The translations under genes and the position numbers were made by a program. From NCBI RefSeq assembly GCF_056712565.1, contig NZ_CM160072.1: a DNA stretch of 64,000 nt; one strand, given 5' to 3'. This document shows positions 6,832-54,181 of this stretch, piece by piece (within the stretch, counting starts at the first letter, position 1; each line of letters starts with the position of its first letter). The notes below the pieces were generated by a model, which had not been told where the DNA came from, did no database searches, and saw only the letters and a program-made list of their open reading frames with translations.

Positions 6832-6916
6832 GCCGAAGTGGCGAAATCGGTAGACGCAGTTGATTCAAAATCAACCGTAGAAATACGTGCCGGTTCGAGT
6901 CCGGCCTTCGGCACCA
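6832..6916 (+). tRNA. leuX: tRNA-Leu (anticodon CAA), 85 nt with encoded CCA end
   Basis: GCCGAAGTGGCGAAATCGGTAGACGCAGTTGATTCAAAATCAACC...GGTTCGAGTCCGGCCTTCGGCACCA: class II tRNA with long variable arm, anticodon loop TTCAAAA. Confidence 0.95.
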
Positions 6917-7176: not shown

Positions 7177-8367
7177 ATGCATCTGCTTGTCCATCCAAAT
7201 GGTTCTAAGTACTGGCGTTTGCAGTACCGTTATGAGGGAAAGCAAAAAATGCTGGCACTTGGGGTTTATCCTGAAATCACACTAGCGGATGCCAGAGTAC
7301 GTCGTGACGAGACGCGTAAGCTGCTTGCGAATGGCGTCGATCCGGGAGACAAAAAGAAAAATGATAAGGTTGAACAGAGTAAAGCACGAACCTTTAAAGA
7401 AGTCGCGATTGAGTGGCATGGCACCAATAAAAAGTGGTCTGAAGATCACGCCCATCGTGTGCTAAAAAGTCTTGAAGATAATCTTTTTGCAGCGCTTGGT
7501 GAACGTAATATCGCTGAGTTAAAAACTCGAGATTTATTAGCACCTATTAAGGCCGTAGAAATGTCTGGACGTCTTGAAGTGGCCGCTCGTCTTCAGCAGC
7601 GCACTACAGCCATCATGCGCTATGCAGTGCAAAGTGGGTTAATTGATTATAACCCGGCACAAGAGATGGCTGGGGCGGTTGCTTCCTGTAATCGACAACA
7701 TCGTCCCGCGCTTGAATTAAAGCGCATCCCTGAGTTGCTTACAAAAATAGATAGCTATACTGGTAGGCCGCTAACCCGATGGGCGATAGAACTCACTTTG
7801 CTGATCTTTATTCGGTCCAGTGAGCTGCGTTTTGCTCGTTGGTCAGAGATCGATTTCGAAGCGTCTATATGGACTATCCCACCGGAGCGGGAGCCTATTC
7901 CTGGAGTGAAACATTCCCATAGAGGCTCAAAAATGCGTACAACGCATCTAGTGCCTCTTTCAACGCAAGCTCTTGCAATTTTAAAGCAGATAAAACAGTT
8001 TTATGGGGCCCATGACTTGATATTTATTGGTGATCACGATTCGCACAAACCCATGAGTGAGAATACGGTAAATAGTGCGTTACGGGTCATGGGGTATGAT
8101 ACAAAAGTAGAGGTTTGTGGTCATGGCTTTCGAACAATGGCCTGTAGTTCATTGGTCGAATCAGGTCTGTGGTCTCGTGATGCTGTTGAACGCCAGATGA
8201 GCCACATGGCGCGAAATTCAGTGAGGGCCGCGTATATCCATAAAGCAGAGCATCTGGAAGAACGGCGATTGATGCTACAGTGGTGGGCCGATTTTCTGGA
8301 TGTAAACAGAGAAAGGTTTATCAGTCCATTTGAATATGCAAAGATTAATAATCCATTAAAACAGTAA
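7177..8367 (+). CDS. intB: P4-type tyrosine integrase; intact ORF begins at internal ATG because the native start (ATG 7102) is followed by an in-frame TAG at 7156-7158
   Basis: 396-aa ORF with tyrosine-recombinase C-terminal region (HGFRTMACSSL...RAAYIHKAE); upstream in-frame MALTDIKVRAAKPTDKQY-stop-LTDGGG is the typical P4-integrase N-terminus; directly downstream of tRNA. Confidence 0.85.
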   Translation: MHLLVHPNGSKYWRLQYRYEGKQKMLALGVYPEITLADARVRRDETRKLLANGVDPGDKKKNDKVEQSKARTFKEVAIEWHGTNKKWSEDHAHRVLKSLEDNLFAALGERNIAELKTRDLLAPIKAVEMSGRLEVAARLQQRTTAIMRYAVQSGLIDYNPAQEMAGAVASCNRQHRPALELKRIPELLTKIDSYTGRPLTRWAIELTLLIFIRSSELRFARWSEIDFEASIWTIPPEREPIPGVKHSHRGSKMRTTHLVPLSTQALAILKQIKQFYGAHDLIFIGDHDSHKPMSENTVNSALRVMGYDTKVEVCGHGFRTMACSSLVESGLWSRDAVERQMSHMARNSVRAAYIHKAEHLEERRLMLQWWADFLDVNRERFISPFEYAKINNPLKQ

Positions 8368-8389: not shown

Positions 8390-8539
8390 AATTATTCTAG
8401 GATTATTTTCTTTGTTAAAAAAGACAAACGGTATTAACTGATGTATTTACTATTTACCGCTCCCTGCAGGGGGGATTATCAGAATCCGCGGTTATTCATT
8501 ATTTATATACATTCAATAAAAAAGTAACTGGATTTGCCC

Positions 8540-9445
8540 CTATATTTCCAGACACCTGTTATCACTTAACCCATTACTGGCTTGCTGCCGTAGATATTCC
8601 CGTGGCGAGCGATAACCCAGTGCACTATGCGGATGCCATTCGTTATAATGCTCGAACGCCTCTGCAAGGTTCTTTGCTGCCGTTAACCCGTCTGGTTTGG
8701 GCATGACACTGATGTAGTCACGCTTTATCGTTTTCACGAAGCTCTCTGCTATGCCGTTACTCTCCGGACTCCGCACCGCCGTGCTCTTCGGTTCAAGCCC
8801 CAACATCCGGGCAAACTGCCGTGTTTCATTAGCCCGGTAGCATGAACCATTATCCGTCAGCCACTCTACTGGAGACGCCGGAAGCTCGTTGCCGAAGCGG
8901 CGTTCCACCGCTCCCAGCATGACGTCCTGTACTGTTTCACTGTTGAAGCCGCCCGTAGTGACCGCCCAGTGCAGTGCCTCACGGTCACAGCAGTCCAGCG
9001 CGAACGTGACTCGCAGTTTTTCTCCGTTATCACAGCGGAACTCGAACCCGTCAGAGCACCATCGCTGATTACTTTCTTTCACAGCCACTCTGCCTGTATG
9101 TGCCCGTTTCGATGGCGGTACAGCAGGTTTTCGCTCAAGCAACAGCGCATTCTGGCGCATGATCCGGTAAACACGTTTGGCATTGATCGCAGGCATACCA
9201 TCAAGTTCTGCCTGTCTGCGAAGCAGCGCCCATACCCGACGATAACCATACGTGGGCAGCTCTCCGATAACATGGTGTATACGGAGAAGCACATCCGTAT
9301 CATCAGTGTGACGACTGCGGCGGCCATCCATCCAGTCATCGGTTCGTCTGAGAATGACGTGCAACTGCGCACGCGACACCCGGAGACAACGGCTGACTAA
9401 GCTTACTCCCCATCCCCGGGCAATAAGGGCGCGTGCGCTATCCAC
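8540..9445 (-). CDS. insD: IS2 transposase OrfB (InsD)
   Basis: 301-aa ORF, IS3-family DDE transposase (…[25 protein letters not shown]…). Confidence 0.9.
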
Positions 9446-9768
9446 TTTTTTGCCCGTCCATATTCAACGGCTTCTTTGAGGAGTTCATTTTCCATCGTTT
9501 TCTTGCCGAGCAGGCGCTGGAGTTCTTTAATCTGCTTCATGGCGGCAGCAAGTTCAGAGGCAGGAACAACCTGTTCTCCGGCGGCGACAGCAGTAAGACT
9601 TCCTTCCTGGTATTGCTTACGCCAGAGAAATAACTGGCTGGCTGCTACACCATGTTGCCGGGCAACGAGGGAGACCGTCATCCCTGGTTCAAAGCTCTGC
9701 TGAACAATTGCGATCTTTTCCTGTGTGGTACGCCGTCTGCGTTTCTCCGGTCCTAAGACATCAATCAT
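9403..9768 (-). CDS. insC: IS2 OrfA (InsC), HTH protein
   Basis: ORF 9403..9813; start set at [24 protein letters not shown] (121 aa); overlaps insD in the usual frameshift arrangement. Confidence 0.85.
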
Positions 9769-10103
9769 CTGCTCTCCAATGACTAGTCTAAAAACTAGTA
9801 TTAAGACTATCACTTAAATAAGTGATATTGGTTGTCTGGAGATTCAGGGGGCCAGTCTAGTAACCTCATAAAAAATCCTGTACTCACAGGGTGATGCGGG
9901 ATAACTGACGTAAGGAGTGCTGCAGGGATTTGATGGTCCCTTGTGCTGATATGAATACGGATATTTTATACAGAATACTTTTCAGTACAAGCGACTGTAT
10001 TACAGTCTGCCATATATGATTACCTGTGATCAGGAAGAATAAGTGGCTGAGGTTTCAAACTGTCTGCCGGTATATTCCTCTCTCCCTTAAAAACCATAAC
10101 AGG

Positions 10104-11325: not shown

Positions 11326-11685
11326 GAGGGGGCCTTCGCTCCTCTGACATTACTCAGTATTTTCACTACTACACCCCATCTGCCATCCATAACAACCGAT
11401 TCACCCCCTCGCGAGGCGTTGTTGCCCGTCACCCGGACAGACACCGTTATGGATTTCTCTTGTTGCACGATCGATCAATTGTTATGCATGCTGACACCAC
11501 AACCCCGGTGGGTATGACCGATGCCTTTCTCACTCTCTTCCCGGTCATCGTCGGCCTTCCCCGTTATTGTGGCGTGTCAGCACCCTCGACGGCATTTCGA
11601 TGGCTGCTCAGTGTTCACTCACGTTACGGCCCGCATAACCCGTTGACTTCCTGAAGAAGTCGTTTCAGGGAGAGATTCAGCCCTT

Positions 11686-12015
11686 TTGTTACCTCCTGGA
11701 CCGCTTCTTGTCCTTCCAGTCGGAGCGAGAGTTAGCCGGGGCGGACTTTCACCGACGGAAAGATCGTGCATTTCAAGGCACACACAACAATATCTGCGAG
11801 CGTGCTATCCGTCCGGTCGTTATGGGACGAAAGGCCTGGTTGTTCGCTGGTTCACTGGTGGCCGGGAACCGCGCGGCACAGATAATGAGCCTTCTGGGAA
11901 CCGCAGTCTGGAGCCACATGCTTGGCTGACGGACGTCCTGACGCGTCTGCCGGAGTGGCCGGAGGAGAGGTTGGCTGAGTTACTGCCTCTTGAGGGCTTT
12001 ACCTTCTTCGGGTAA
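11686..12015 (+). CDS. yjgZ: 109-aa ORF that is a C-terminal remnant of an IS66-family transposase (yjgZ-like)
   Basis: Overlapping frames carry NNICERAIRPVVMGRKAWLFAGS and WLTDVLTRLPEWPEERLAELLP, both IS66 TnpC C-terminal signatures; frame-shifted. Confidence 0.45.
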   Translation: MLPPGPLLVLPVGARVSRGGLSPTERSCISRHTQQYLRACYPSGRYGTKGLVVRWFTGGREPRGTDNEPSGNRSLEPHAWLTDVLTRLPEWPEERLAELLPLEGFTFFG

Positions 12016-42274: not shown

Positions 42275-42392
42275 ACAGTCCGCCAGGGAAATGCCTGATA
42301 ACATTACGTTAACCAACTGAAAACATGACACAAACCCCTCATACTCCTCCTGTTTCTCTTGCGTGACCGCCTTGTCGTTAATAGAATAAAAC

Positions 42393-42428
42393 GATCGATA
42401 AAACAGGTATCGATCGTTACTATCGATC
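42393..42428 (+). promoter_or_regulatory. Antigen 43 phase-variation switch: three GATC (Dam) sites, expected to overlap the OxyR site
   Basis: GATC at 42393, 42412 and 42425 (spacing 19 and 13 bp) about 220 bp upstream of the flu start codon. Confidence 0.65.
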
Positions 42429-42645
42429 GTTTATAGTGGTTAATGGTCTGCGAAAAGGCAGCTGAATCTCTTCATCATGCAGAACGGAATTGCACACAAC
42501 GGACTGATACTTCTCTGGCGGATGAGAGAGGGGAAGCATTTATGTCCGGGAAAAACCACTTTATCTGAGCATGCTGTTTTGTACCTGCCGGTATCCACAT
42601 TTGTGGGTACCGGCTTTTTTATTCACCCTCTGTAAGGAAAAGCTG

Positions 42646-45600
42646 ATGAAACGACATCTGAACACCAGCTACAGGCTGGTATGGAATCACATTACGGGCA
42701 CCCTGGTGGTGGCCTCCGAACTGGCCCGCTCACGGGGAAAACGCGCTGGTGTGGCGGTTGCGCTGTCTCTTGCTGCTGTCACATCAGTCCCGGCACTGGC
42801 TGCTGACAAGGTTGTACAGGCGGGAGAAACCGTGAACGACGGAACACTGACAAATCATGACAACCAGATTGTCCTCGGTACGGCCAACGGAATGACCATC
42901 AGTACCGGTCTGGAGTATGGGCCGGATAACGAGGCCAATACCGGCGGACAATGGATACAAAATGGCGGTATCGCCAACAACACTACTGTCACCGGTGGTG
43001 GTCTTCAGAGAGTGAATGCCGGAGGAAGCGTTTCAGACACGGTTATCAGTGCCGGAGGCGGACAGAGCCTTCAGGGGCAGGCAGTGAACACCACTCTGAA
43101 CGGCGGTGAGCAGTGGGTACATGAAGGCGGGATTGCAACGGGTACCGTCATTAATGAGAAGGGCTGGCAGGCCATCAAATCCGGCGCAGTGGCAACCGAC
43201 ACGGTTGTGAATACCGGCGCGGAAGGGGGACCGGATGCGGAAAATGGTGATACCGGGCAGACCGTCTACGGAGATGCCGTACGCACCACCATCAATAAAA
43301 ATGGTCGTCAGATTGTGGCTGCTGAAGGAACGGCAAATACCACTGTGGTTTATGCCGGCGGCGACCAGACTGTACATGGTCACGCACTGGATACCACGCT
43401 GAATGGGGGGTACCAGTATGTGCACAACGGCGGTACGGCGTCTGGCACTGTTGTAAACAGTGACGGCTGGCAGATTGTCAAAAACGGGGGTGTGGCCGGG
43501 AATACCACCGTTAATCAGAAGGGCAGACTGCAGGTGGACGCCGGTGGTACAGCCACGAATGTCACCCTGAAGCAGGGCGGCGCACTGGTTACCAGTACGG
43601 CTGCAACCGTTACCGGCATAAACCGCCTGGGAGCATTCTCTGTTGTGGAGGGTAAAGCTGATAATGTCGTACTGGAAAATGGCGGACGCCTGGATGTGCT
43701 GACCGGACACACAGCCACTAATACCCGCGTGGATGATGGCGGAACGCTGGATGTCCGCAACGGTGGCACCGCCACCACCGTATCCATGGGAAATGGCGGT
43801 GTACTGCTGGCCGATTCCGGTGCCGCTGTCAGTGGTACCCGGAGCGACGGAAAGGCATTCAGTATCGGAGGCGGTCAGGCGGATGCCCTGATGCTGGAAA
43901 AAGGCAGTTCATTCACGCTGAACGCCGGTGATACGGCCACGGATACCACGGTAAATGGCGGACTGTTCACCGCCAGGGGCGGCACACTGGCGGGCACCAC
44001 CACGCTGAATAACGGCGCCATACTTACCCTTTCCGGGAAGACGGTGAACAACGATACCCTGACCATCCGTGAAGGCGATGCACTCCTGCAGGGAGGCTCT
44101 CTCACCGGTAACGGCAGCGTGGAAAAATCAGGAAGTGGCACACTCACTGTCAGCAACACCACACTCACCCAGAAAGCCGTCAACCTGAATGAAGGCACGC
44201 TGACGCTGAACGACAGTACCGTCACCACGGATGTCATTGCTCAGCGCGGTACAGCCCTGAAGCTGACCGGCAGCACTGTGCTGAACGGTGCCATTGACCC
44301 CACGAATGTCACTCTCGCCTCTGGTGCCACCTGGAATATTCCCGATAACGCCACGGTGCAGTCGGTGGTGGATGACCTCAGCCATGCTGGACAGATTCAT
44401 TTCACCTCCACCCGCACAGGGAAGTTCGTACCGGCAACCCTGAAAGTGAAAAACCTGAACGGACAGAATGGCACCATCAGCCTGCGTGTACGCCCGGATA
44501 TGGCACAGAACAATGCTGACAGACTGGTCATTGACGGTGGCAGGGCAACTGGAAAAACCATCCTGAACCTGGTGAACGCCGGCAACAGTGCGTCGGGGCT
44601 GGCGACCAGCGGTAAGGGTATTCAGGTGGTGGAAGCCATTAACGGTGCCACCACGGAGGAAGGGGCCTTTATCCAGGGGAATAAGCTGCAGGCCGGTGCC
44701 TTTAACTACTCCCTCAACCGGGACAGTGATGAGAGCTGGTATCTGCGCAGTGAAAATGCTTATCGTGCTGAAGTCCCCCTGTATACATCCATGCTGACAC
44801 AGGCAATGGACTATGACCGGATTCTGGCAGGCTCCCGCAGCCATCAGACCGGTGTAAACGGTGAAAATAACAGCGTCCGTCTCAGCATTCAGGGCGGTCA
44901 TCTCGGTCACGATAACAACGGCGGTATTGCCCGTGGAGCCACGCCGGAAAGCAGCGGCAGTTATGGCTTCGTCCGTCTGGAGGGTGACCTGCTGAGAACA
45001 GAGGTTGCCGGTATGTCTCTGACGACAGGGGTGTATGGTGCCGCAGGCCATTCTTCCGTTGATGTTAAGGATGATGACGGTTCCCGCGCCGGCACGGTCC
45101 GGGATGATGCCGGCAGTCTGGGCGGATACCTGAATCTGGTACACACGTCCTCCGGCCTGTGGGCTGACATTGTGGCACAGGGAACCCGCCACAGCATGAA
45201 AGCATCATCGGACAATAACGACTTCCGCGCCCGGGGCTGGGGCTGGCTGGGCTCACTGGAAACCGGTCTGCCCTTCAGTATCACTGACAATCTGATGCTG
45301 GAGCCACAACTGCAGTACACCTGGCAGGGACTCTCCCTGGATGACGGCCAGGATAACGCCGGTTATGTGAAGTTCGGGCATGGCAGTGCACAACATGTGC
45401 GTGCCGGCTTCCGTCTGGGCAGCCACAACGATATGAACTTTGGTAAAGGCACCTCATCCCGTGACACCCTGCGCGACAGTGCCAAACACAGTGTGCGTGA
45501 ATTGCCGGTGAACTGGTGGGTACAGCCTTCTGTTATCCGCACTTTCAGCTCCCGGGGTGACATGAGCATGGGTACAGCCGCCGCCGGCAGTAACATGACG

Positions 45601-45765
45601 TTCTCACCGTCCCGGAATGGCACGTCACTGGACCTGCAGGCCGGACTGGAAGCCCGTGTCCGGGAAAATATCACCCTGGGCGTTCAGGCCGGTTATGCCC
45701 ACAGCGTCAGCGGCAGCAGCGCTGAAGGTTATAACGGTCAGGCCACGCTGAATGTGACTTTTTGA
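42646..45765 (+). CDS. flu: Antigen 43 self-associating autotransporter adhesin
   Basis: ORF 42571..45765; start [52 protein letters not shown] (extended autotransporter signal peptide); repetitive Gly/Thr/Asn beta-helix passenger; C-terminal beta-barrel ending …GQATLNVTF. Confidence 0.9.
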
Positions 45766-45788
45766 TAATCAGGTCACTCTCCTTCAGG

Positions 45789-45815
45789 CCCCGGTCATCA
45801 TGACCGGGGCTTTTT
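45789..45815 (+). terminator. Rho-independent terminator of flu
   Basis: Hairpin CCCCGGTCA-TCA-TGACCGGGG followed by CTTTTT. Confidence 0.7.
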
Positions 45816-45835
45816 ACTTTCAGGGAGCAACAGAT

Positions 45836-45994
45836 ATGCCGGGTTGTACATCTCGTTTATTGCCCGAAGGCCCTTTCTCACGCGAACAGGCTGTTGCCGT
45901 CAAAACAGCTTACCGCAATGTGTTTACTGAAGATGACCAGGGAACATATTCCCGGCTGGTTATCCGTAATGCTGAAGGTCAGTTGCGCTGGTGA
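45836..45994 (+). CDS. Small hypothetical protein (52 aa) of CP4-type modules
   Basis: In-frame ATG downstream of the flu terminator within ORF 45800..45994. Confidence 0.35.
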
Positions 45995-46148
45995 TGCCGG
46001 AACACAGCTTAATACTCAGCTCGCCAGTTAAGGGCTTCTCAGACAATAAACGTCATTCATTTCATCTGTCAGGCCGCGTCTTCTCCGGGAGACGTGGCTT
46101 TTTCATTTATTACACCAGTAAATCGTAACCACCGATAAGGAGCAAATT

Positions 46149-46967
46149 ATGCGACTAGCCAGTCGTTTTGGTTATGCGAACCAGATACGCCGTGACCGTC
46201 CGCTGACACACGAAGAACTGATGCACTATGTTCCCAGTATTTTCGGTGAAGACCGGCATACTTCCCGCAGTAAACGATATGCGTACATTCCCACCATCAC
46301 CGTACTGGAAAGCCTGCAGCGGGAAGGCTTTCAGCCATTCTTCGCCTGCCAGACCCGTGTGCGCGACCCGGGCCGCCGGGGATACACAAAACACATGCTG
46401 CGTCTGCGGCGGGCCGGAGAGATAAACGGAGAACATGTCCCTGAAATCATTCTGCTCAACTCCCATGACGGTACCTCCAGCTACCAGATGCTGCCGGGTT
46501 ACTTCAGGTTCGTCTGTCAGAACGGATGCGTCTGTGGTCAGTCTCTGGGGGAAGTGCGTGTTCCGCACCGGGGAAATGTGGTGGACAGATTCATTGAAGG
46601 GGCTTACGAGGTGGTGGGCGTGTTTGACCGGATAGAGGAGAAGCATGATGCCATGCAGTCGCTGGTCCTGTCGCCACCGGCACGCCAGGCGCTGGCACAG
46701 GCGGCACTGACTTACCGTTATGGTGACGAACATCAGCCAGTCACCACCGCTGACATTCTGACACCACGACGCAGGGAGGGTTACGGTCAGGACCTGTGGA
46801 GCGCATATCAGACCATCCAGGAGAATATGCTGAAAGGCGGAATTTCCGGCCGCAGTGCAAAAGGAAAACGTATCCACACCCGTGCCATTCACAACATCGA
46901 CACCGATATTAAGCTCAACCGCGCATTGTGGGTAATGGCAGAAACGCTGCTGGAGAGCCTGCGCTGA
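46149..46967 (+). CDS. DUF932-like protein (YfjQ/YafZ family)
   Basis: 272 aa; size and position after the GTPase/Ag43 genes match YfjQ/YafZ-type proteins (recollection). Confidence 0.6.
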   Translation: MRLASRFGYANQIRRDRPLTHEELMHYVPSIFGEDRHTSRSKRYAYIPTITVLESLQREGFQPFFACQTRVRDPGRRGYTKHMLRLRRAGEINGEHVPEIILLNSHDGTSSYQMLPGYFRFVCQNGCVCGQSLGEVRVPHRGNVVDRFIEGAYEVVGVFDRIEEKHDAMQSLVLSPPARQALAQAALTYRYGDEHQPVTTADILTPRRREGYGQDLWSAYQTIQENMLKGGISGRSAKGKRIHTRAIHNIDTDIKLNRALWVMAETLLESLR

Positions 46968-47308
46968 TGCAGCATGTCCCTGAAAGCGTGATTCAGGCAC
47001 CAGAATCACCCGACGCCCCGGAGGCGCTGCCGGGGTGTCGTTCCATTTCTGATGATGACCTGTGCGCCTGGTGTACCCGTCTGCTTTACCGTCCCGGAGA
47101 AATCAGTCTGTGCAGACTGAGTATACAGGCAATGGCATCTGGCCATCCGTCTGTGACCGGAACGGTTACGCGTACGGCTGTCCGGAATTTCAGCCGAATA
47201 TCATTCATCCCTGATATTACCGGGTCATCACGGTCAGTGATGAACGTGATGTTGCCAGCTCCCGACCTTTACTCCCTCTCATTTATTCACATTACAAGGA
47301 TTTCATAC

Positions 47309-47782
47309 ATGAAAACATTGTCTCAGAACACCACCTCTTCGGCCTGTGCACCGGAGACTGACCTGCAAAAACTGGTAGCCACTCCCGTCCCTGATGAACG
47401 GCGCATCAGCTTCTGGCCGCAGCACTTTGGCCTCATTCCACAGTGGGTGACCCTGGAGCCCCGTATCTTCGGCTGGATGGACCGTCTGTGTGAAGACTAC
47501 TGCGGTGGTATCTGGAATCTGTACACCCTGAACAACGGCGGGGCATTTATGGCACCCGAACCGGATGACGATGATGACGAAACATGGGTACTGTTCAATG
47601 CCATGAACGGTAACCGCGCTGAAATGAGCCCGGAAGCCGCCGGCATTGCTGCCTGTCTGATGACGTACAGTCATCATGCCTGTCGTACGGAGTGTTATGC
47701 CATGACGGTCCATTATTACCGGCTGCGGGATTACGCCCTGCAGCATCCGGAATGCAGCGCCATTATGCGCATCATCGACTGA
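47309..47782 (+). CDS. Antirestriction protein (KlcA/ArdB-like; YfjX/YafX family)
   Basis: 157 aa from MKTLSQNTTSS…; upstream part of the same ORF (46967..47308) may be a separate small gene or an N-terminal extension. Confidence 0.65.
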   Translation: MKTLSQNTTSSACAPETDLQKLVATPVPDERRISFWPQHFGLIPQWVTLEPRIFGWMDRLCEDYCGGIWNLYTLNNGGAFMAPEPDDDDDETWVLFNAMNGNRAEMSPEAAGIAACLMTYSHHACRTECYAMTVHYYRLRDYALQHPECSAIMRIID

Positions 47783-47797
47783 ATGGAGAGAAGTACA

Positions 47798-48274
47798 ATG
47801 CAACAGCTTTCCTTTCTGCCCGGAGAGATGACGCCCGGCGAGCGCAGCCTCATTCAACGGGCCCTGAAAACCCTGGACCGCCATCTTCATGAACCCGGCG
47901 TGGCCTTCACCTCCACCCGTGCGGCACGAGAATGGCTGATTCTGAACATGGCGGGACTGGAGCGTGAAGAGTTCCGGGTGCTGTATCTGAACAACCAGAA
48001 TCAGCTGATTGCCGGTGAAACCCTCTTCACCGGCACCATCAACCGCACGGAAGTCCATCCCCGGGAAGTGATTAAACGCGCCCTGTATCACAATGCCGCT
48101 GCTGTGGTGCTGGCACACAATCACCCGTCCGGTGAAGTCACACCCAGCAAGGCAGACCGCCTTATCACGGAACGTCTGGTACAGGCACTGGGCCTGGTGG
48201 ATATCCGGGTGCCGGACCATCTGATAGTCGGTGGCAGCCAGGTTTTCTCCTTTGCCGAATATGGTCTGCTTTAA
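47798..48274 (+). CDS. RadC-like JAB-domain protein (YeeS/YkfG/YfjY family)
   Basis: JAMM motif HNHPSGEVTPSKAD; ORF 47783..48274. Confidence 0.8.
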   Translation: MQQLSFLPGEMTPGERSLIQRALKTLDRHLHEPGVAFTSTRAAREWLILNMAGLEREEFRVLYLNNQNQLIAGETLFTGTINRTEVHPREVIKRALYHNAAAVVLAHNHPSGEVTPSKADRLITERLVQALGLVDIRVPDHLIVGGSQVFSFAEYGLL

Positions 48275-48336
48275 CCCGTCACAACCACATCACACCTGTT
48301 TTCACTTTTATCTTCTGTCTTCAGAGGTATCCCACT

Positions 48337-48558
48337 ATGAAAATCATCACCCGTGGCGAAGCCATGCGTATTCACCGTCAGCATCCGGCATCCCGTCTTT
48401 TTCCGTTCTGTACCGGCAAATACCGCTGGCACGGCAGTGCTGAAGCGTATACCGGTCGTGAAGTGCAGGATATTCCCGGTGTGCTGGCCGTGTTTGCAGA
48501 ACGCCGTAAGGACAGTTTTGGTCCGTATGTCCGGCTGATGAGCGTCACCCTGAACTGA
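48337..48558 (+). CDS. YeeT-like small protein (DUF987)
   Basis: 73 aa; position between the RadC-like gene and the antitoxin as in CP4-44. Confidence 0.65.
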   Translation: MKIITRGEAMRIHRQHPASRLFPFCTGKYRWHGSAEAYTGREVQDIPGVLAVFAERRKDSFGPYVRLMSVTLN

Positions 48559-48720
48559 TGTTCCGTCACCCGGAAAACGAGTACGACTGGCAGAGCTCAG
48601 ACGCCGCTGTGGATGAGGTCCTGCTCATCAACGAATACACCTTTACCGAAGCCGGTCTGCGCGCCGGCTGACCCGTCATCGTTAAACTATCATTCACCGA
48701 TTTTCTGTGAGGATTTTATC

Positions 48721-49089
48721 GTGTCAGACACACTTTCCGGGACAACGCATCCCGATGACAATGACGACCATCCCTGGTGGGGACTACCCTGCACAGTGAC
48801 GCCCTGTTTCGGCGCCCGTCTGGTGCAGGAGGGTAACCGGTTGCATTACCTTGCCGACCGTGCCGGTATCAGAGGCCGGTTCAGAGATGCGGATGCGTAC
48901 CCTCTGGACCAGGCCTTTCCGCTGCTGATGAAACAACTGAAATTAATGCTCACCAGTGGTGAACTGAATCCCCGCCATCAGCATACCGTGACACTGTATG
49001 CGAAGGGGCTGACCTGTGAAGCCGACACCCTCGGCTCCTGTGGTTACGTTTATCTGGCTGTTTATCCGACACCTGAAACGAAAAAGTAA
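48721..49089 (+). CDS. cbeA: CbeA/YeeU-family antitoxin, GTG start
   Basis: VSDTLSGTTHPDDNDDHPWWGLPCTVTPCFGARLVQEGNRLHYLADRAGIRG…TPETKK, 122 aa, matches the CbeA family along its length. Confidence 0.75.
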   Translation: MSDTLSGTTHPDDNDDHPWWGLPCTVTPCFGARLVQEGNRLHYLADRAGIRGRFRDADAYPLDQAFPLLMKQLKLMLTSGELNPRHQHTVTLYAKGLTCEADTLGSCGYVYLAVYPTPETKK

Positions 49090-49178
49090 ACCACCAGAAT
49101 AACCTTCTGCTCCGGCCTGGTGTTTTCACCACGCCACTGTCCCATTTTTTATCTCTGCATATCAGGAAAATCTTCAGT

Positions 49179-49409
49179 ATGAAAACATTACCCGACACGC
49201 ATGTACGGGAGGTATCGTGCTGCCCGTCTCCAGTCACCATCTGGCAGACACTGCTCACCCGGTTACTGGACCAGCATTCCCTGATTTCCTCATCGATATC
49301 GAATAAGCACTCGTCGCAGAATTCTTTATCGAGTGAGAGCCTCTGTTCAAGGACGCTTCTTTTTTTTGTTGCAACGTGCACATCCCTTCATCTTTCCGCG
49401 CCTTTGTGA
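49179..49409 (+). pseudogene. cbtA: Truncated CbtA/YeeV-family toxin gene (only about the first 33 codons are toxin-like)
   Basis: MKTLPDTHVREVSCCPSPVTIWQTLLTRLLDQH matches the CbtA/YkfI/YpjF N-terminus; from about 49278 the frame reads unrelated low-complexity sequence. Confidence 0.7.
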
Positions 49410-49546
49410 CCTCGTGATTTGGGGTACATGGAAAATGGGCGTAGCAAGCCTCAGCTAGATAACTAACCGTAATAAAAGGGCTTTTCTGCGAGCAATGTAA
49501 GAGAAGGATAACTAGGCAGGTTGCAAGAAAGATAATCGTTTTGATA

Positions 49547-49581
49547 GATCAGTTTATCGATATTGATCGTTAGTGCCGATC
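49547..49581 (+). promoter_or_regulatory. Second GATC triplet resembling the Ag43 Dam/OxyR switch, about 450 bp upstream of mtnK
   Basis: GATC at 49547, 49565, 49578 (spacing 18 and 13 bp versus 19 and 13 in the flu switch); shared GATCGTTA-N5-GATCG core. Confidence 0.35.
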
Positions 49582-49930
49582 GATAAGAAGTGCGGAAACG
49601 TTAGACTCACCTCTGTTGCTCCATCATGATGATGGGGCTGTTGGCCCTCGAATCTATCTGTCTATTAGCATCGGCATGACAAACACCATTTGTTTCCACA
49701 ACAAAAGACAATAGAAAAGTACATATGTACAAAAAGTGTGATTTATTCTGTCACTTCAGTACTTCCTTTCGCCTAAGTTTGCCCGTAATAATTCCCCGTG
49801 CAGTACTATTGTTGCGACATAACAACATGAATTACATGGTAATAATAGATGTTTTCCTCTGCTGATTCCTGTAAGGATCATGACTCCATACGACATCATT
49901 TTTAATTTTATACAGTTCAAAAAATCTACA

Positions 49931-49980
49931 TGTGTCACAAATAATTTTACATTTGATAATGTATAGTTGTCACATGACAA
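49931..49980 (+). promoter_or_regulatory. Operator-like palindromes TGTGTCACA and TTGTCACATGACAA in the mtnK promoter region
   Basis: Two palindromic sites sharing a TGTCACA core, 37-86 bp upstream of the mtnK ATG, near a GATAAT -10-like hexamer. Confidence 0.3.
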
Positions 49981-50016
49981 GTTGATTATCATTCTGTGTA
50001 GACAAGGAGAACTGTT

Positions 50017-51276
50017 ATGACGGATTCAATTCCATCAGGTTACAAGCCGCTGACATGTGACACGCTGCCGGGTTATCTCTCGTCCAGACTGACCCCTTCA
50101 TGCGAACCGGGAGGGTTACCTGAAGAGTGGAAAGTTTCAGAAGTGGGGGACGGAAACCTGAACATGGTGTTTATCGTTGAGGGGACACATAAAACCATCA
50201 TTGTAAAACAAGCTCTGCCCTGGCTTCGTGCCGGGGGCGAAGGATGGCCTTTATCTCTGAGCCGTGCGGGCTTTGAGTACAACGTCTTATGTCAGGAAGC
50301 CAAGTACGCGGGTCACACACTGATTCCGCAGGTCTATTTTTACGACCCGGAAATGGCGCTGTTTGCCATGGAGTATCTGACTCCTCACGTGATTCTGCGT
50401 AAGGAACTGATTAACGGTAAAAAATTCCCTAAACTAGCTGAAGATATCGGCAGATTTTTAGCACAGACTCTCTTCAATACGTCTGACATTGGCATGTCAG
50501 CAGAACAGAAAAAAGCGCTTACTGCCGAGTTCGCGTTGAATCATGAGCTGTGCAAAATTACGGAAGATCTGATCTTCACAGAGCCCTATTACAACGCTGA
50601 ACGGAATAACTGGACTTCTCCTGAGCTGGACGATGCCGTCCATAAGGCCTGGGCTGATGTAGAGATGATCCAGGTTGCCATGCGTTATAAGTACAAATTT
50701 ATGACAGAAGCGCAGGCATTGTTACATGGCGACCTTCATTCAGGCTCAATCATGGTGACCGACACGGATACCAAAGTGATTGATCCGGAGTTCGGTTTCA
50801 TGGGGCCAATGGCGTTTGATATCGGCAACTATATTGGCAACCTCCTGCTGGCGTACTTCTCACGCCCTGGGTGGGATGCGAATGAGCAACGTCGCGCTGA
50901 CTATCAGGAATGGCTGCTTCAGCAGATTGTCCAAACCTGGTCCGTTTTCACCCGGGAGTTCCGCCAGCTCTGGGACAACAAAACACAGGGCGACGCGTGG
51001 TCGACAGAAATGTATCAACAGAACAGGGCCGCTCTTGAGGACGCACAGGATCAGTTTTTTGCCACGCTGCTTGAAGATTCCCTGGTGAATGCCGGCATGG
51101 AAATGAATCGCCGGATCATTGGTTTTGCTGGCGTTGCCGAGCTGAAACAGATTGAAAATACAGAGCTTCGCGCAGGATGTGAACGACGTGCATTGACCAT
51201 GGCGCGCGATCTTATCGTCAATGCCCGCCAGTTTAAAAATATGGATTCCGTCATCCAGTCTGCGAAGGTTAAGTAA
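50017..51276 (+). CDS. mtnK: 5-methylthioribose kinase-like kinase
   Basis: 419 aa; phosphotransferase fold with HGDLHSGSIMV catalytic motif; first gene of a four-gene co-directional cluster. Confidence 0.8.
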   Translation: MTDSIPSGYKPLTCDTLPGYLSSRLTPSCEPGGLPEEWKVSEVGDGNLNMVFIVEGTHKTIIVKQALPWLRAGGEGWPLSLSRAGFEYNVLCQEAKYAGHTLIPQVYFYDPEMALFAMEYLTPHVILRKELINGKKFPKLAEDIGRFLAQTLFNTSDIGMSAEQKKALTAEFALNHELCKITEDLIFTEPYYNAERNNWTSPELDDAVHKAWADVEMIQVAMRYKYKFMTEAQALLHGDLHSGSIMVTDTDTKVIDPEFGFMGPMAFDIGNYIGNLLLAYFSRPGWDANEQRRADYQEWLLQQIVQTWSVFTREFRQLWDNKTQGDAWSTEMYQQNRAALEDAQDQFFATLLEDSLVNAGMEMNRRIIGFAGVAELKQIENTELRAGCERRALTMARDLIVNARQFKNMDSVIQSAKVK

Positions 51277-51285
51277 GAGGTCATT

Positions 51286-52401
51286 ATGAATATTAAAGGT
51301 AAACACTATCGTACGGTCTGGGTTTCCGGGGATGGAAAAGCGGTAGAAATCATCGATCAGACTAAGTTGCCTTTTAAGTTCGAGGTGGTGGCGCTTACCT
51401 CTGCGGAAATGGCCGCTACGGCTATTCAGGATATGTGGGTTCGTGGCGCTCCGCTTATTGGTGTCGTTGCAGCCTATGGCATCGCGCTGGGAATGAATCA
51501 CGATGCCAGTGACATGGGTCTGCAGCGTTACTATGACCTTCTTATCAAAACCCGACCAACGGCAATTAATCTCAAATGGGCCCTCGACAGGATGATAGAC
51601 ACACTGAAGGATCTCTGTGTATCAGAGCGCAAGGATGTGGCCTGGGCGCTGGCGGCAGAAATTGCCGAGGAAGATGTCGCGTTGTGTGAACAAATTGGAT
51701 TACATGGTGCAGAAGTCATCCGCGAAATAGCCCAGAAAAAACCGGCCGGGAGTGTGGTCAATATCCTGACACATTGTAACGCAGGCTGGCTGGCGACTGT
51801 AGACTGGGGAACCGCGCTTTCTCCCATCTACAAAGCGCATGAAAACGGAATCCCTGTTCACGTCTGGGTGGATGAAACGCGGCCACGTAATCAGGGCGGA
51901 CTCACGGCATTTGAACTGGGCTCACACGGTATTCCTCACACCCTGATCGCCGACAACGCGGGTGGCCACCTGATGCAACACGGTGACGTTGATCTCTGCA
52001 TTGTTGGGACCGATCGAACCACGGCCAGAGGGGATGTCTGTAATAAAATTGGTACCTATCTTAAGGCGCTGGCGGCCCATGATAACCATGTTCCCTTCTA
52101 CGTCGCGTTACCTTCTCCCACTATTGACTGGACTATCGAGGACGGAAAAAGCATTCCGATTGAGCAACGTGACGGAAAAGAGCAGTCCCATGTCTATGGG
52201 ATAAACCCTCAGGGAGAATTGAGCTGGGTCAATACCGCCCCTGAAGGAACCCGTTGTGGGAACTACGCTTTCGACGTCACGCCTGCCCGATACATTACCG
52301 GCTTCATTACTGAGCGGGGAGTCTGTGCTGCCAGTAAGTCAGCGCTGGCGGATATGTTTGCTGACCTGAAGAGTAAAGCACTCCAGGGGGAACAGCATTA
52401 A
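51286..52401 (+). CDS. mtnA: 5-methylthioribose-1-phosphate isomerase (eIF-2B alpha/beta/delta-like family)
   Basis: 371 aa; …[15 protein letters not shown]… and …[10 protein letters not shown]… typical of this isomerase family. Confidence 0.8.
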
Positions 52402-52431: not shown

Positions 52432-53073
52432 ATGGAACGGATTAAGTTAGCAGAAAAAATCATTTCCACTTGTCGGGAAATGAATGCGTCAGGTCTTAAT
52501 CAAGGAACATCAGGTAATGTGAGTGCCAGGTATACCGGTGGCATGTTGATTACGCCGAGTGGGATCGCTTATTCAAAGATGACGCCGGACATGATTGTCT
52601 TTGTAGACGATAAGGGAAAACCTGAAGCGGGTAAAATACCATCAAGTGAATGGTTAATTCATCTGGCGTGTTATAAAGCCAGACCAGAATTGAATGCTGT
52701 CATACATACGCATGCGGTGAATTCCACGGCGGTGGCAATACATAATCATTCAATTCCGGCCATTCATTATATGGTGGCGGTATCGGGGACGGATCATATT
52801 CCCTGTATTCCCTATTATACCTTTGGCAGTCCTGAACTGGCCGACGGTGTATCTAAAGGAATCAGAGAAAGTAAGTCCTTGCTGATGCAGCACCACGGTA
52901 TGCTGGCCATGGACGTCACGCTGGAAAAGACGTTGTGGCTGGCGGGTGAAACCGAGACGCTGGCTGATTTATACATCAAATGTGGCGGATTACATCACGA
53001 TGTTCCCGTGCTGTCTGAAGCCGAAATGACCATCGTCCTTGAAAAATTCAAAACGTATGGTTTGAAAGCGTAA
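52432..53073 (+). CDS. Class II aldolase/adducin-family protein (probable 5-methylthioribulose-1-phosphate / 5-deoxyribulose-1-phosphate aldolase)
   Basis: 213 aa; zinc-ligand motifs VIHTHAVNS and HHGMLA; no dehydratase-pathway genes downstream. Confidence 0.75.
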   Translation: MERIKLAEKIISTCREMNASGLNQGTSGNVSARYTGGMLITPSGIAYSKMTPDMIVFVDDKGKPEAGKIPSSEWLIHLACYKARPELNAVIHTHAVNSTAVAIHNHSIPAIHYMVAVSGTDHIPCIPYYTFGSPELADGVSKGIRESKSLLMQHHGMLAMDVTLEKTLWLAGETETLADLYIKCGGLHHDVPVLSEAEMTIVLEKFKTYGLKA

Positions 53074-53176: not shown

Positions 53177-54181
53177 ATGTTTATCGTGGAATCGTATGCT
53201 GTCGCCATAATAATGTGTTTTATTACCATGATTTGCTGGGGTTCATGGGCGAATACAACTAAACTTGTCAGCAATAAAAAATGGGAGTTCCCTCTATTCT
53301 ATTGGGATTATTCAATTGGATTATTGCTGTGTTCTTTGTTATTTGCCTTCACGCTGGGTTCTATGGGCGAAGCCGGTCGCAGTTTTATACCTGATATTCA
53401 GCAGGCGAGCAGCAGTAGTCTGATGTCGGCAATACTGGCAGGGATTATCTTCAATATTTCCAATATTCTTCTGGTCGCTTCTATTAATCTTGCCGGTATG
53501 GCGGTAGCTTTTCCTGTGGGTGTGGGGCTGGCACTGGCTCTGGGTGTGATCACCACCTATATCGGCAATCCGCAGGGCGATCCGCTCATTCTGTTCCTCG
53601 GTGTCGTCTGCGTTGTGATCGCCATTATTTTTACCGCGATAGCCTATGGTCGTGTCACGCAGGAGGCGGATAAATCTCGCCGTAATAAAGGTCTCATTAC
53701 TGCCATTCTGGCGGGTATCATCATGGGATGGTTTTTCCGCTTCCTGGCGGACTCCATGTCTGACAATTTCAGCCAGCCTGCCAGCGGTCTGATGACGCCT
53801 TACTCAGCACTTGTTCTGTTTGCCGTGGGGCTGTTTTTGTCGAACTTTGTCCTTAACAGGCTGGTCATGAAAAAACCTATTTCAGGAGAACCGGTCAACG
53901 GGAAAATGTATTTTTCCGGGAGTTTACGGGATCATGTTTGCGGCTGGCTGGGCGGTATGATTTGGTGTGTCGGTCTGGCATTCAGTCTGATTGCGTCTGG
54001 TCAGGCGGGGTATGCCATTTCCTACGGTCTGGGACAGGGGGCCACAATGATTGCCGTGATCTGGGGAGTCTTCATCTGGAGAGAATTTGCCAGTGCGCCA
54101 GCCGGAACCAATAAACTGCTGCTGACCATGTTTATTTCATACATTGTGGGTATTGTTCTTATTATCGCCGCTAATCAATAA
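53177..54181 (+). CDS. DMT-superfamily sugar permease (GRP/RhaT-like), 10 predicted TM segments
   Basis: 334 aa, highly hydrophobic, two repeated 5-TM halves; last gene of the mtn cluster. Confidence 0.65.
   Translation: MFIVESYAVAIIMCFITMICWGSWANTTKLVSNKKWEFPLFYWDYSIGLLLCSLLFAFTLGSMGEAGRSFIPDIQQASSSSLMSAILAGIIFNISNILLVASINLAGMAVAFPVGVGLALALGVITTYIGNPQGDPLILFLGVVCVVIAIIFTAIAYGRVTQEADKSRRNKGLITAILAGIIMGWFFRFLADSMSDNFSQPASGLMTPYSALVLFAVGLFLSNFVLNRLVMKKPISGEPVNGKMYFSGSLRDHVCGWLGGMIWCVGLAFSLIASGQAGYAISYGLGQGATMIAVIWGVFIWREFASAPAGTNKLLLTMFISYIVGIVLIIAANQ

Follow-up and report, generated by a model that had tools for sequence, protein, structure and literature searches.

A 33-codon cbtA remnant beside an intact cbeA antitoxin gene: the probable scar of a ~12-kb deletion in the tRNA-leuX island of Escherichia coli

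How does a type IV antitoxin gene come to stand, apparently whole, beside a toxin gene that breaks off after 33 codons, and what could such an antitoxin still do? The question is raised by a locus in a stretch of 64,000 nucleotides (hereafter the window), which is the tRNA-leuX genomic island of E. coli, with tRNA-Leu(CAA) at 6832-6916. To the left of the antitoxin gene lies a CP4-type module on the plus strand (47309..48558), made up of genes for an antirestriction protein (47309-47782), a RadC/JAB protein (47798-48274, with an NCBIfam RadC match) and a DUF987/YeeT-like protein (48337-48558)—an order that follows that of yeeS-yeeT-cbeA-cbtA in K-12 CP4-44. These assignments follow RefSeq, which annotates the corresponding part of FDAARGOS_497; that strain is 99.6-99.7% identical to the window in this region and 99.6-99.9% identical overall, but differs by indels in the left 37 kb.

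The surroundings of the locus hold several further features. An unannotated 37-codon ORF (48558-48671, +), whose ATG overlaps the DUF987 stop, spans most of the DNA that separates the DUF987 gene from cbeA; strain EC958 has an ISEc12 insertion just 5' of this ORF, at about window position 48535-48540. Further left, the DUF905 gene 3' of Ag43 (45836-46031, +) is frameshifted, and it is annotated as a pseudogene in the matching RefSeq genomes and in EC958 as well. An Rfam IS102 RNA (RF00124, 74.6 bits) was found at 42391-42627 (+), just 5' of the Ag43 gene—the same position that the isrC sRNA of K-12 CP4-44 holds upstream of flu—and group II intron domains D1-D4 (RF02003, 69 bits, above the gathering score) at 11619-11758 (-); an Rfam scan of the 48-50 kb region found no RNA family. 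Moreover, an IS2-like element (8529-9859), with InsC/InsD-type ORFs at 9403-9813 and 8540-9445 on the minus strand, follows shortly after the integrase gene of the leuX island (7177-8367) and is absent from FDAARGOS_497, which is otherwise 99-99.9% identical.

The antitoxin gene itself, cbeA/yeeU (48721-49089, +), opens with a GTG start, carries a GAGGA Shine-Dalgarno sequence 7 nt 5' of it, and runs for 122 aa without stops (WP_001295723.1). Its product aligns with model positions 1-100 of 101 of the Pfam family CbeA_antitoxin (PF06154, E=4.5e-53), a full-length family match; residues 1-121 match the solved YeeU structures 2H28 and 2INW (E about 1e-74), and identity to K-12 CbeA amounts to 109/121. 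In identical genomes, RefSeq/PGAP names the gene 'type IV toxin-antitoxin system YeeU family antitoxin'. The same protein adjoins intact toxins in CFSAN061763, 120899 and EC958, and at the nucleotide level there are 0/369 differences from the EC958 copy. The preliminary description of this DNA had called the antitoxin ORF intact and had named a disruption of it as the finding that would count against its reading; the ORF is indeed uninterrupted, and no disruption is seen in a protein identical to copies beside intact toxins. The family assignments came from Pfam, as an NCBIfam scan of the antitoxin, the toxin remnant, the DUF987 protein and the 37-aa ORF returned no family.

The neighbouring toxin gene is a fragment. 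A chimeric ORF of 76 aa (49179-49409, +) starts ninety bases after cbeA and joins codons 1-33 of a CbtA-family toxin gene (the cbtA remnant, a pseudogene, 49179-49277, +) to a read-through tail of 43 codons that ends at a TGA stop (49278-49409, +). In undeleted strains, the DNA of this tail is part of the non-coding 799-bp region 5' of mtnK. Compared with a full-length toxin domain (~112 profile positions in a protein of ~110-125 aa), the ORF covers only model positions 1-34 of 112 of Pfam CbtA_toxin (PF06755, E=4.8e-14), and its first 33 residues agree at every position (33/33) with the start of WP_000854759.1, the intact EC958 toxin of 125 aa. RefSeq/PGAP labels 49179-49277 as 'TA system toxin CbtA family protein; incomplete; missing C-terminus'. 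A tblastn search with K-12 CbtA against all 64 kb recovered residues 1-33 only, with no displaced C-terminal piece and no frameshifted continuation; since no further piece of cbtA is present in the window, neither a frameshift nor an insertion accounts for the truncation. The preliminary estimate that the CbtA match is limited to some 33 codons therefore agrees with the Pfam profile and with the alignments to intact genes, and the full-length toxin frame that it had set against its own reading is absent from every frame of the window. What stands here is accordingly not a complete type IV toxin-antitoxin module of two adjacent, co-oriented and intact genes, the toxin being reduced to a remnant of 33 codons.

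Such a remnant lacks about 90 of the 125 toxin residues. The deleted part includes F65 of the family alignment, the conserved residue needed for FtsZ binding by CbtA, YpjF and YkfI (PMC5624674). With most of the fold missing, F65 included, and a 43-codon tail of former intergenic sequence in its place, the remnant is almost certainly inert and without toxin activity. Residue 15 of the remnant is naturally a Cys, as in YpjF and YkfI. In K-12 CbtA, R15C abolishes MreB binding; the same residue-15 discrepancy was noted by Heller et al., with C15R having no effect in the paralogues.

To place the break, the closest intact loci were located with a chimeric query, in which the window cbeA and the 99-nt remnant were fused to the 3' part of K-12 cbtA. 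Homology to the intact cbtA of 120899, CFSAN061763 and K-12 is lost directly after codon 33 (...CAG CAT / T, the slash marking the joint), so that alignment to full-length cbtA puts the joint at 49277/49278, in agreement with the break near 49278 described earlier. Over the cbeA-cbtA spacer and the opening 99 nt of cbtA, strain 120899 and the window differ by a single synonymous base; past codon 33, strain 120899 reads ...CAG CAT TAC AGC CTT ACG... (H-Y-S-L-T), whereas the window reads ...CAG CAT TCC CTG ATT TCC.... To the right of the joint, the window follows the interior of the conserved mtnK upstream region as it occurs in EC958 (...CTTCTT TCCCTGATTTCC...). A four-way alignment shows microhomology of 1-2 nt at the joint, the TT being assignable to either parent—cbtA (...CAT/TAC...) or the mtn upstream region (...CTTCTT/TCCCTG...). 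The joint carries no IS ends, and the two endpoints share no direct repeat at matching positions. An IS- or repeat-mediated deletion was considered and rejected, as no IS lies at the joint and the longest repeat near the endpoints, 7 nt, is not in register.

The DNA that once separated the two sides can be read from EC958 (ST131), whose leuX island has the undeleted form, with the nucleotide-identical cbeA, a full-length 125-aa cbtA and the mtn cluster further right. Its left part runs from the fec genes to genes for a GTPase, Cah/Ag43, DUF905, DUF932, antirestriction, RadC and DUF987 proteins, followed by ISEc12, cbeA and cbtA. After cbtA come DUF5983 (yeeW-like) and DUF957 genes and three gene fragments (HTH gene fragments); next an adenine methyltransferase of the Alw26I/Eco31I/Esp3I family, a C5 methyltransferase and an endonuclease; then McrC-family and AAA-ATPase (McrB-like) genes, an 84-aa glycosyltransferase-2 fragment and 799 bp of intergenic DNA; and, at the right end, the mtnK-mtnA-aldolase-transporter genes and yjhU (mtnR). 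By blastn, window 48535-49276 corresponds to positions 35081-35822 of the EC958 sequence (L008rc) at 99.6% identity, and window 49277-50470 to positions 47809-49001 at 99.3%. The window thus has the EC958 layout minus 11,986 bp (NZ_CP138232.1 371193-383178), which are missing between window positions 49277 and 49278; this stretch has a GC content of 0.41, and a search for it in the window found it nowhere else. Near the break, the EC958 cbtA differs from the window at three synonymous positions. Given these differences and an ISEc12 of its own, EC958 is not the literal parent, and the ancestor is a reconstruction rather than an observed genome.

On this basis, we consider it highly likely that a single illegitimate deletion of ~12 kb in the leuX island gave rise to this locus, leaving an inactive toxin remnant and a cbeA gene that is still made and able to buffer paralogous toxins, or that is passively kept. 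The ancestral island, EC958-like in layout, carried cbeA-cbtA, the restriction-modification genes, the McrBC-like genes, the glycosyltransferase fragment, the 799 bp and mtnK. A deletion, of 11,986 bp when measured against EC958, then fused cbtA, cut after codon 33, to the intergenic DNA at a distance of 739 bp from mtnK, by way of the 1-2 nt of microhomology. It took away two thirds of the toxin at the C-terminal end, all that follows as far as the glycosyltransferase fragment, and 61 bp from the left end of the intergenic region. The product, a 33-residue remnant followed by 43 junk codons, would have no toxin activity, and cbeA, unchanged, would still be produced and could buffer CbtA/YkfI/YpjF-type toxins encoded by other islands. 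Passive retention would be equally possible: the deletion may have chanced to end in cbtA, with too little time since then for cbeA to decay.

The joint is not confined to the window. Among 5,426 complete E. coli genomes, 402 carry an identical 1,501-bp junction sequence, and 1,082 carry the mtnK upstream segment (99.1-100% identity in 1,027 genomes). The undeleted right-hand junction, in which the upstream region is joined to the glycosyltransferase fragment, was found in 465 genomes, EC958 among them, which carry the mtn cluster with its full 799-bp upstream region; that region is known from ATCC 25922 as well (PMC12632272). On the left side, thousands of genomes continue into the remainder of cbtA. 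Since each flank is continuous with its own neighbour elsewhere, the joint is the derived state—a deletion. In another class of genomes, ISEc52 sits 25 bp to the right of the deletion endpoint (E. coli E41-1, L003 4824-5993; window ~49302/49303), so that, with the deletion counted, the short stretch upstream of mtnK has undergone at least two independent rearrangements. In a spread sample of the deletion class, 10/10 among the matches listed start at the same base (query position 401), and identity to the window over the 1,501 bp is 100% among the matches listed; the shared start and the lack of divergence point to a single event, since inherited or exchanged. Among the sources of the genomes that bear the joint are human, pig, dog and poultry hosts, and surface water.

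To the right of the joint, the window retains 738 bp of the 799-bp mtnK upstream region (49279-50016, +; GC 0.39), which is conserved across genomes, followed on the same strand by the ORFs, also annotated in RefSeq, of mtnK (50017-51276), mtnA (51286-52401), the class II aldolase gene ald2 (52432-53073) and a GRP-family transporter gene (53177-54181). [quoted passage not shown] GC content falls from 0.56 in the island module (42571-49277) to 0.39 in 49278-50016 and returns to 0.49 in the mtn genes, the window average being 0.504. The step at the break is therefore real, and it arises from the AT-rich 738-bp intergenic/promoter stretch, with the mtn genes near the window average. The preliminary description, which took the break for the left edge of an AT-rich segment carrying the mtn cluster, was correct about the drop, but the AT-rich part is only the intergenic DNA.

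That description also offered two causes for the truncation, acquisition of the mtn cluster or a deletion. Only the deletion agrees with the comparison to EC958. An arriving cluster that inserted into cbtA or replaced its 3' part would fit the coincidence of the break with the fall in GC from 0.56 to 0.39, and the cluster is accessory, being present in only about 1,080 of the 5,426 genomes. However, EC958 has the same cluster in the same place and, ~12 kb to its left in the same island, an intact cbtA; the undeleted right-hand junction stands beside mtnK in 465 genomes; what adjoins the break on the right is internal to a longer, conserved 799-bp intergenic region rather than the end of an element; and no cbtA 3' fragment lies beyond the cluster within the window, whose mtn genes are of average GC (0.49). 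An origin by mtn acquisition is thus very improbable in our judgment. Even less credit can be given to the idea that the toxin is really of full length and that its truncation reflects a sequencing or assembly error, whether a frameshift or a misjoin: CbtA residues beyond 33 occur in no frame of the window, and the identical joint in 402 independently assembled complete genomes from varied isolates excludes such an error.

Does a microhomology deletion leave the two flanking operons as they were? In ATCC 25922, mapping has placed the mtnK promoters P1 and P2 at 72 bp and 188-218 bp before the gene (PMC12632272). Both positions fall inside the retained 738 bp, so that regulation of the DHAP shunt should be intact, and a consensus scan gave sigma-70-like sites at 49916-49960. 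The scan of 47700-50100 found no terminator-like site on the plus strand, hence none between cbeA and mtnK, and transcripts of the island operon may now run on into the DHAP-shunt operon, from the joint 739 bp before mtnK.

As for the antitoxin, we infer that cbeA is still made in deletion strains, because the gene is unchanged, its ribosome-binding site is kept and its operon context is that of intact loci. Immediately before cbeA, the consensus promoter/terminator scan showed no convincing promoter-like site on the plus strand, a result that fits co-transcription with the preceding genes, as has been proposed for the K-12 paralogues (PMC5371832). What an orphan CbeA might do is suggested by published work on close relatives. 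Rather than binding its toxin, CbeA bundles polymers of FtsZ and MreB, and its protection extends to other inhibitors of FtsZ (PMC5624674); in two-plasmid assays in K-12, CbeA, YafW and YfjZ each neutralise non-cognate toxins (PMC5371832). Cross-neutralisation of paralogous toxins by the orphan CbeA is therefore plausible and mechanistically sound, given that the protein acts on FtsZ/MreB filaments rather than on the toxin, and it is not a new idea for such antitoxins.

Potential partners are common. A composite query of the junction and the cbtA 3' part detected one or more further cbtA-like places in 56 of 60 deletion-bearing genomes sampled; the remaining four (strains 190, NDM1, TUM1887 and 4012) showed no other cbtA-like locus at megablast sensitivity. 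At the guessed CP4-44-equivalent position of MCJCHV-1, a pdu operon lies next to tmaR, and the corresponding guessed coordinates of MLI106K4 fall in a yersiniabactin island; neither place holds a toxin. Strain 190, with no paralogue detected, nevertheless has a locus 100% identical to the window, which means that retention need imply neither selection nor a partner toxin. Given the near-zero divergence of the locus, moreover, selection on cbeA cannot be told from recency.

The deletion also removed more than a toxin. The two lost methyltransferases and the endonuclease correspond to an Eco31I-type IIS restriction-modification system (EcoMI, GGTCTC), and a McrBC-like system went with them, so that strains with the joint are without two restriction barriers of the leuX island. 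In EC958 the Eco31I-type system adjoins the McrBC-type system and is active, adenine methylation of GAGACC having been detected, and it is variably present in ST131 (PMC4659465).

These losses bear on whether the deletion could have been fixed by selection—for shedding the Eco31I and McrBC barriers or the toxin, or for an orphan CbeA useful as an anti-addiction or cytoskeleton-stabilising factor. One joint common to 402 genomes from varied hosts, an active yet variable restriction system among the DNA lost (PMC4659465), toxin-independent protection by CbeA against several FtsZ inhibitors (PMC5624674) and experimentally demonstrated cross-neutralisation (PMC5371832) would all be in keeping with it. 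However, clonal descent and island exchange suffice to explain the frequency of the joint, the left endpoint within cbtA has no special feature, and with 100% identity over 1,501 bp among the matches listed, purifying selection is inseparable from recency; we regard fixation by selection as distinctly unlikely. A bolder combination would make the orphan CbeA a retained and expressed free cytoskeleton-protecting factor that buffers the toxins of other islands, with a deletion that spread by shedding Eco31I and McrBC and that possibly reads through into the DHAP-shunt operon; this we rate as unlikely. A single illegitimate deletion, with cbeA still made or passively kept, remains the reading that we prefer.

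The significance of the locus is small: it is an ordinary gene remnant, a routine pseudogene scar in a well-studied island, already annotated as such by RefSeq. What is added here is its exact origin—a microhomology deletion of 11,986 bp rather than the arrival of mtn—together with the restriction-modification and McrBC-like systems lost along with the toxin and the occurrence of the joint in ~400 genomes. The joint could serve as a marker for leuX-island lineages, and the deletion strains offer a natural 'antitoxin-only' background for tests of cross-protection among CbtA-family modules.

Compared with known systems, the window pair belongs to the same two protein families as YkfI/YafW of CP4-6 and YpjF/YfjZ of CP4-57. 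Its CbeA is more distant from these antitoxins (66/98 identical to YfjZ and 63/101 to YafW) than from K-12 CbeA, and both lack the 17-residue N-terminal extension of CbeA. Closer at hand is CbtA/CbeA (YeeV/YeeU) of K-12 CP4-44, which shows the same order RadC/yeeS-DUF987/yeeT-cbeA-cbtA downstream of an Ag43 gene, with the same GTG start of cbeA and the same intergenic spacing; K-12 CbtA is identical to the intact EC958 toxin at 108/124 positions. The window differs from CP4-44 in that its island lies at tRNA-leuX, its toxin is cut to 33 codons, and yeeW and everything downstream are gone. The leuX island of ATCC 25922 has the DHAP-shunt operon at its end, as do those of EC958 and the window. 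A further counterpart is the leuX island of EC958: it carries the 11,986 bp from the cbtA 3' part to the GT2 fragment, and the ISEc12 upstream of cbeA, both of which the window lacks, and it shares with the window the same backbone from the fec genes through cbeA and again from 739 bp upstream of mtnK on, with flanks 99.3-100% identical and the same mtn operon and mtnR/yjhU.
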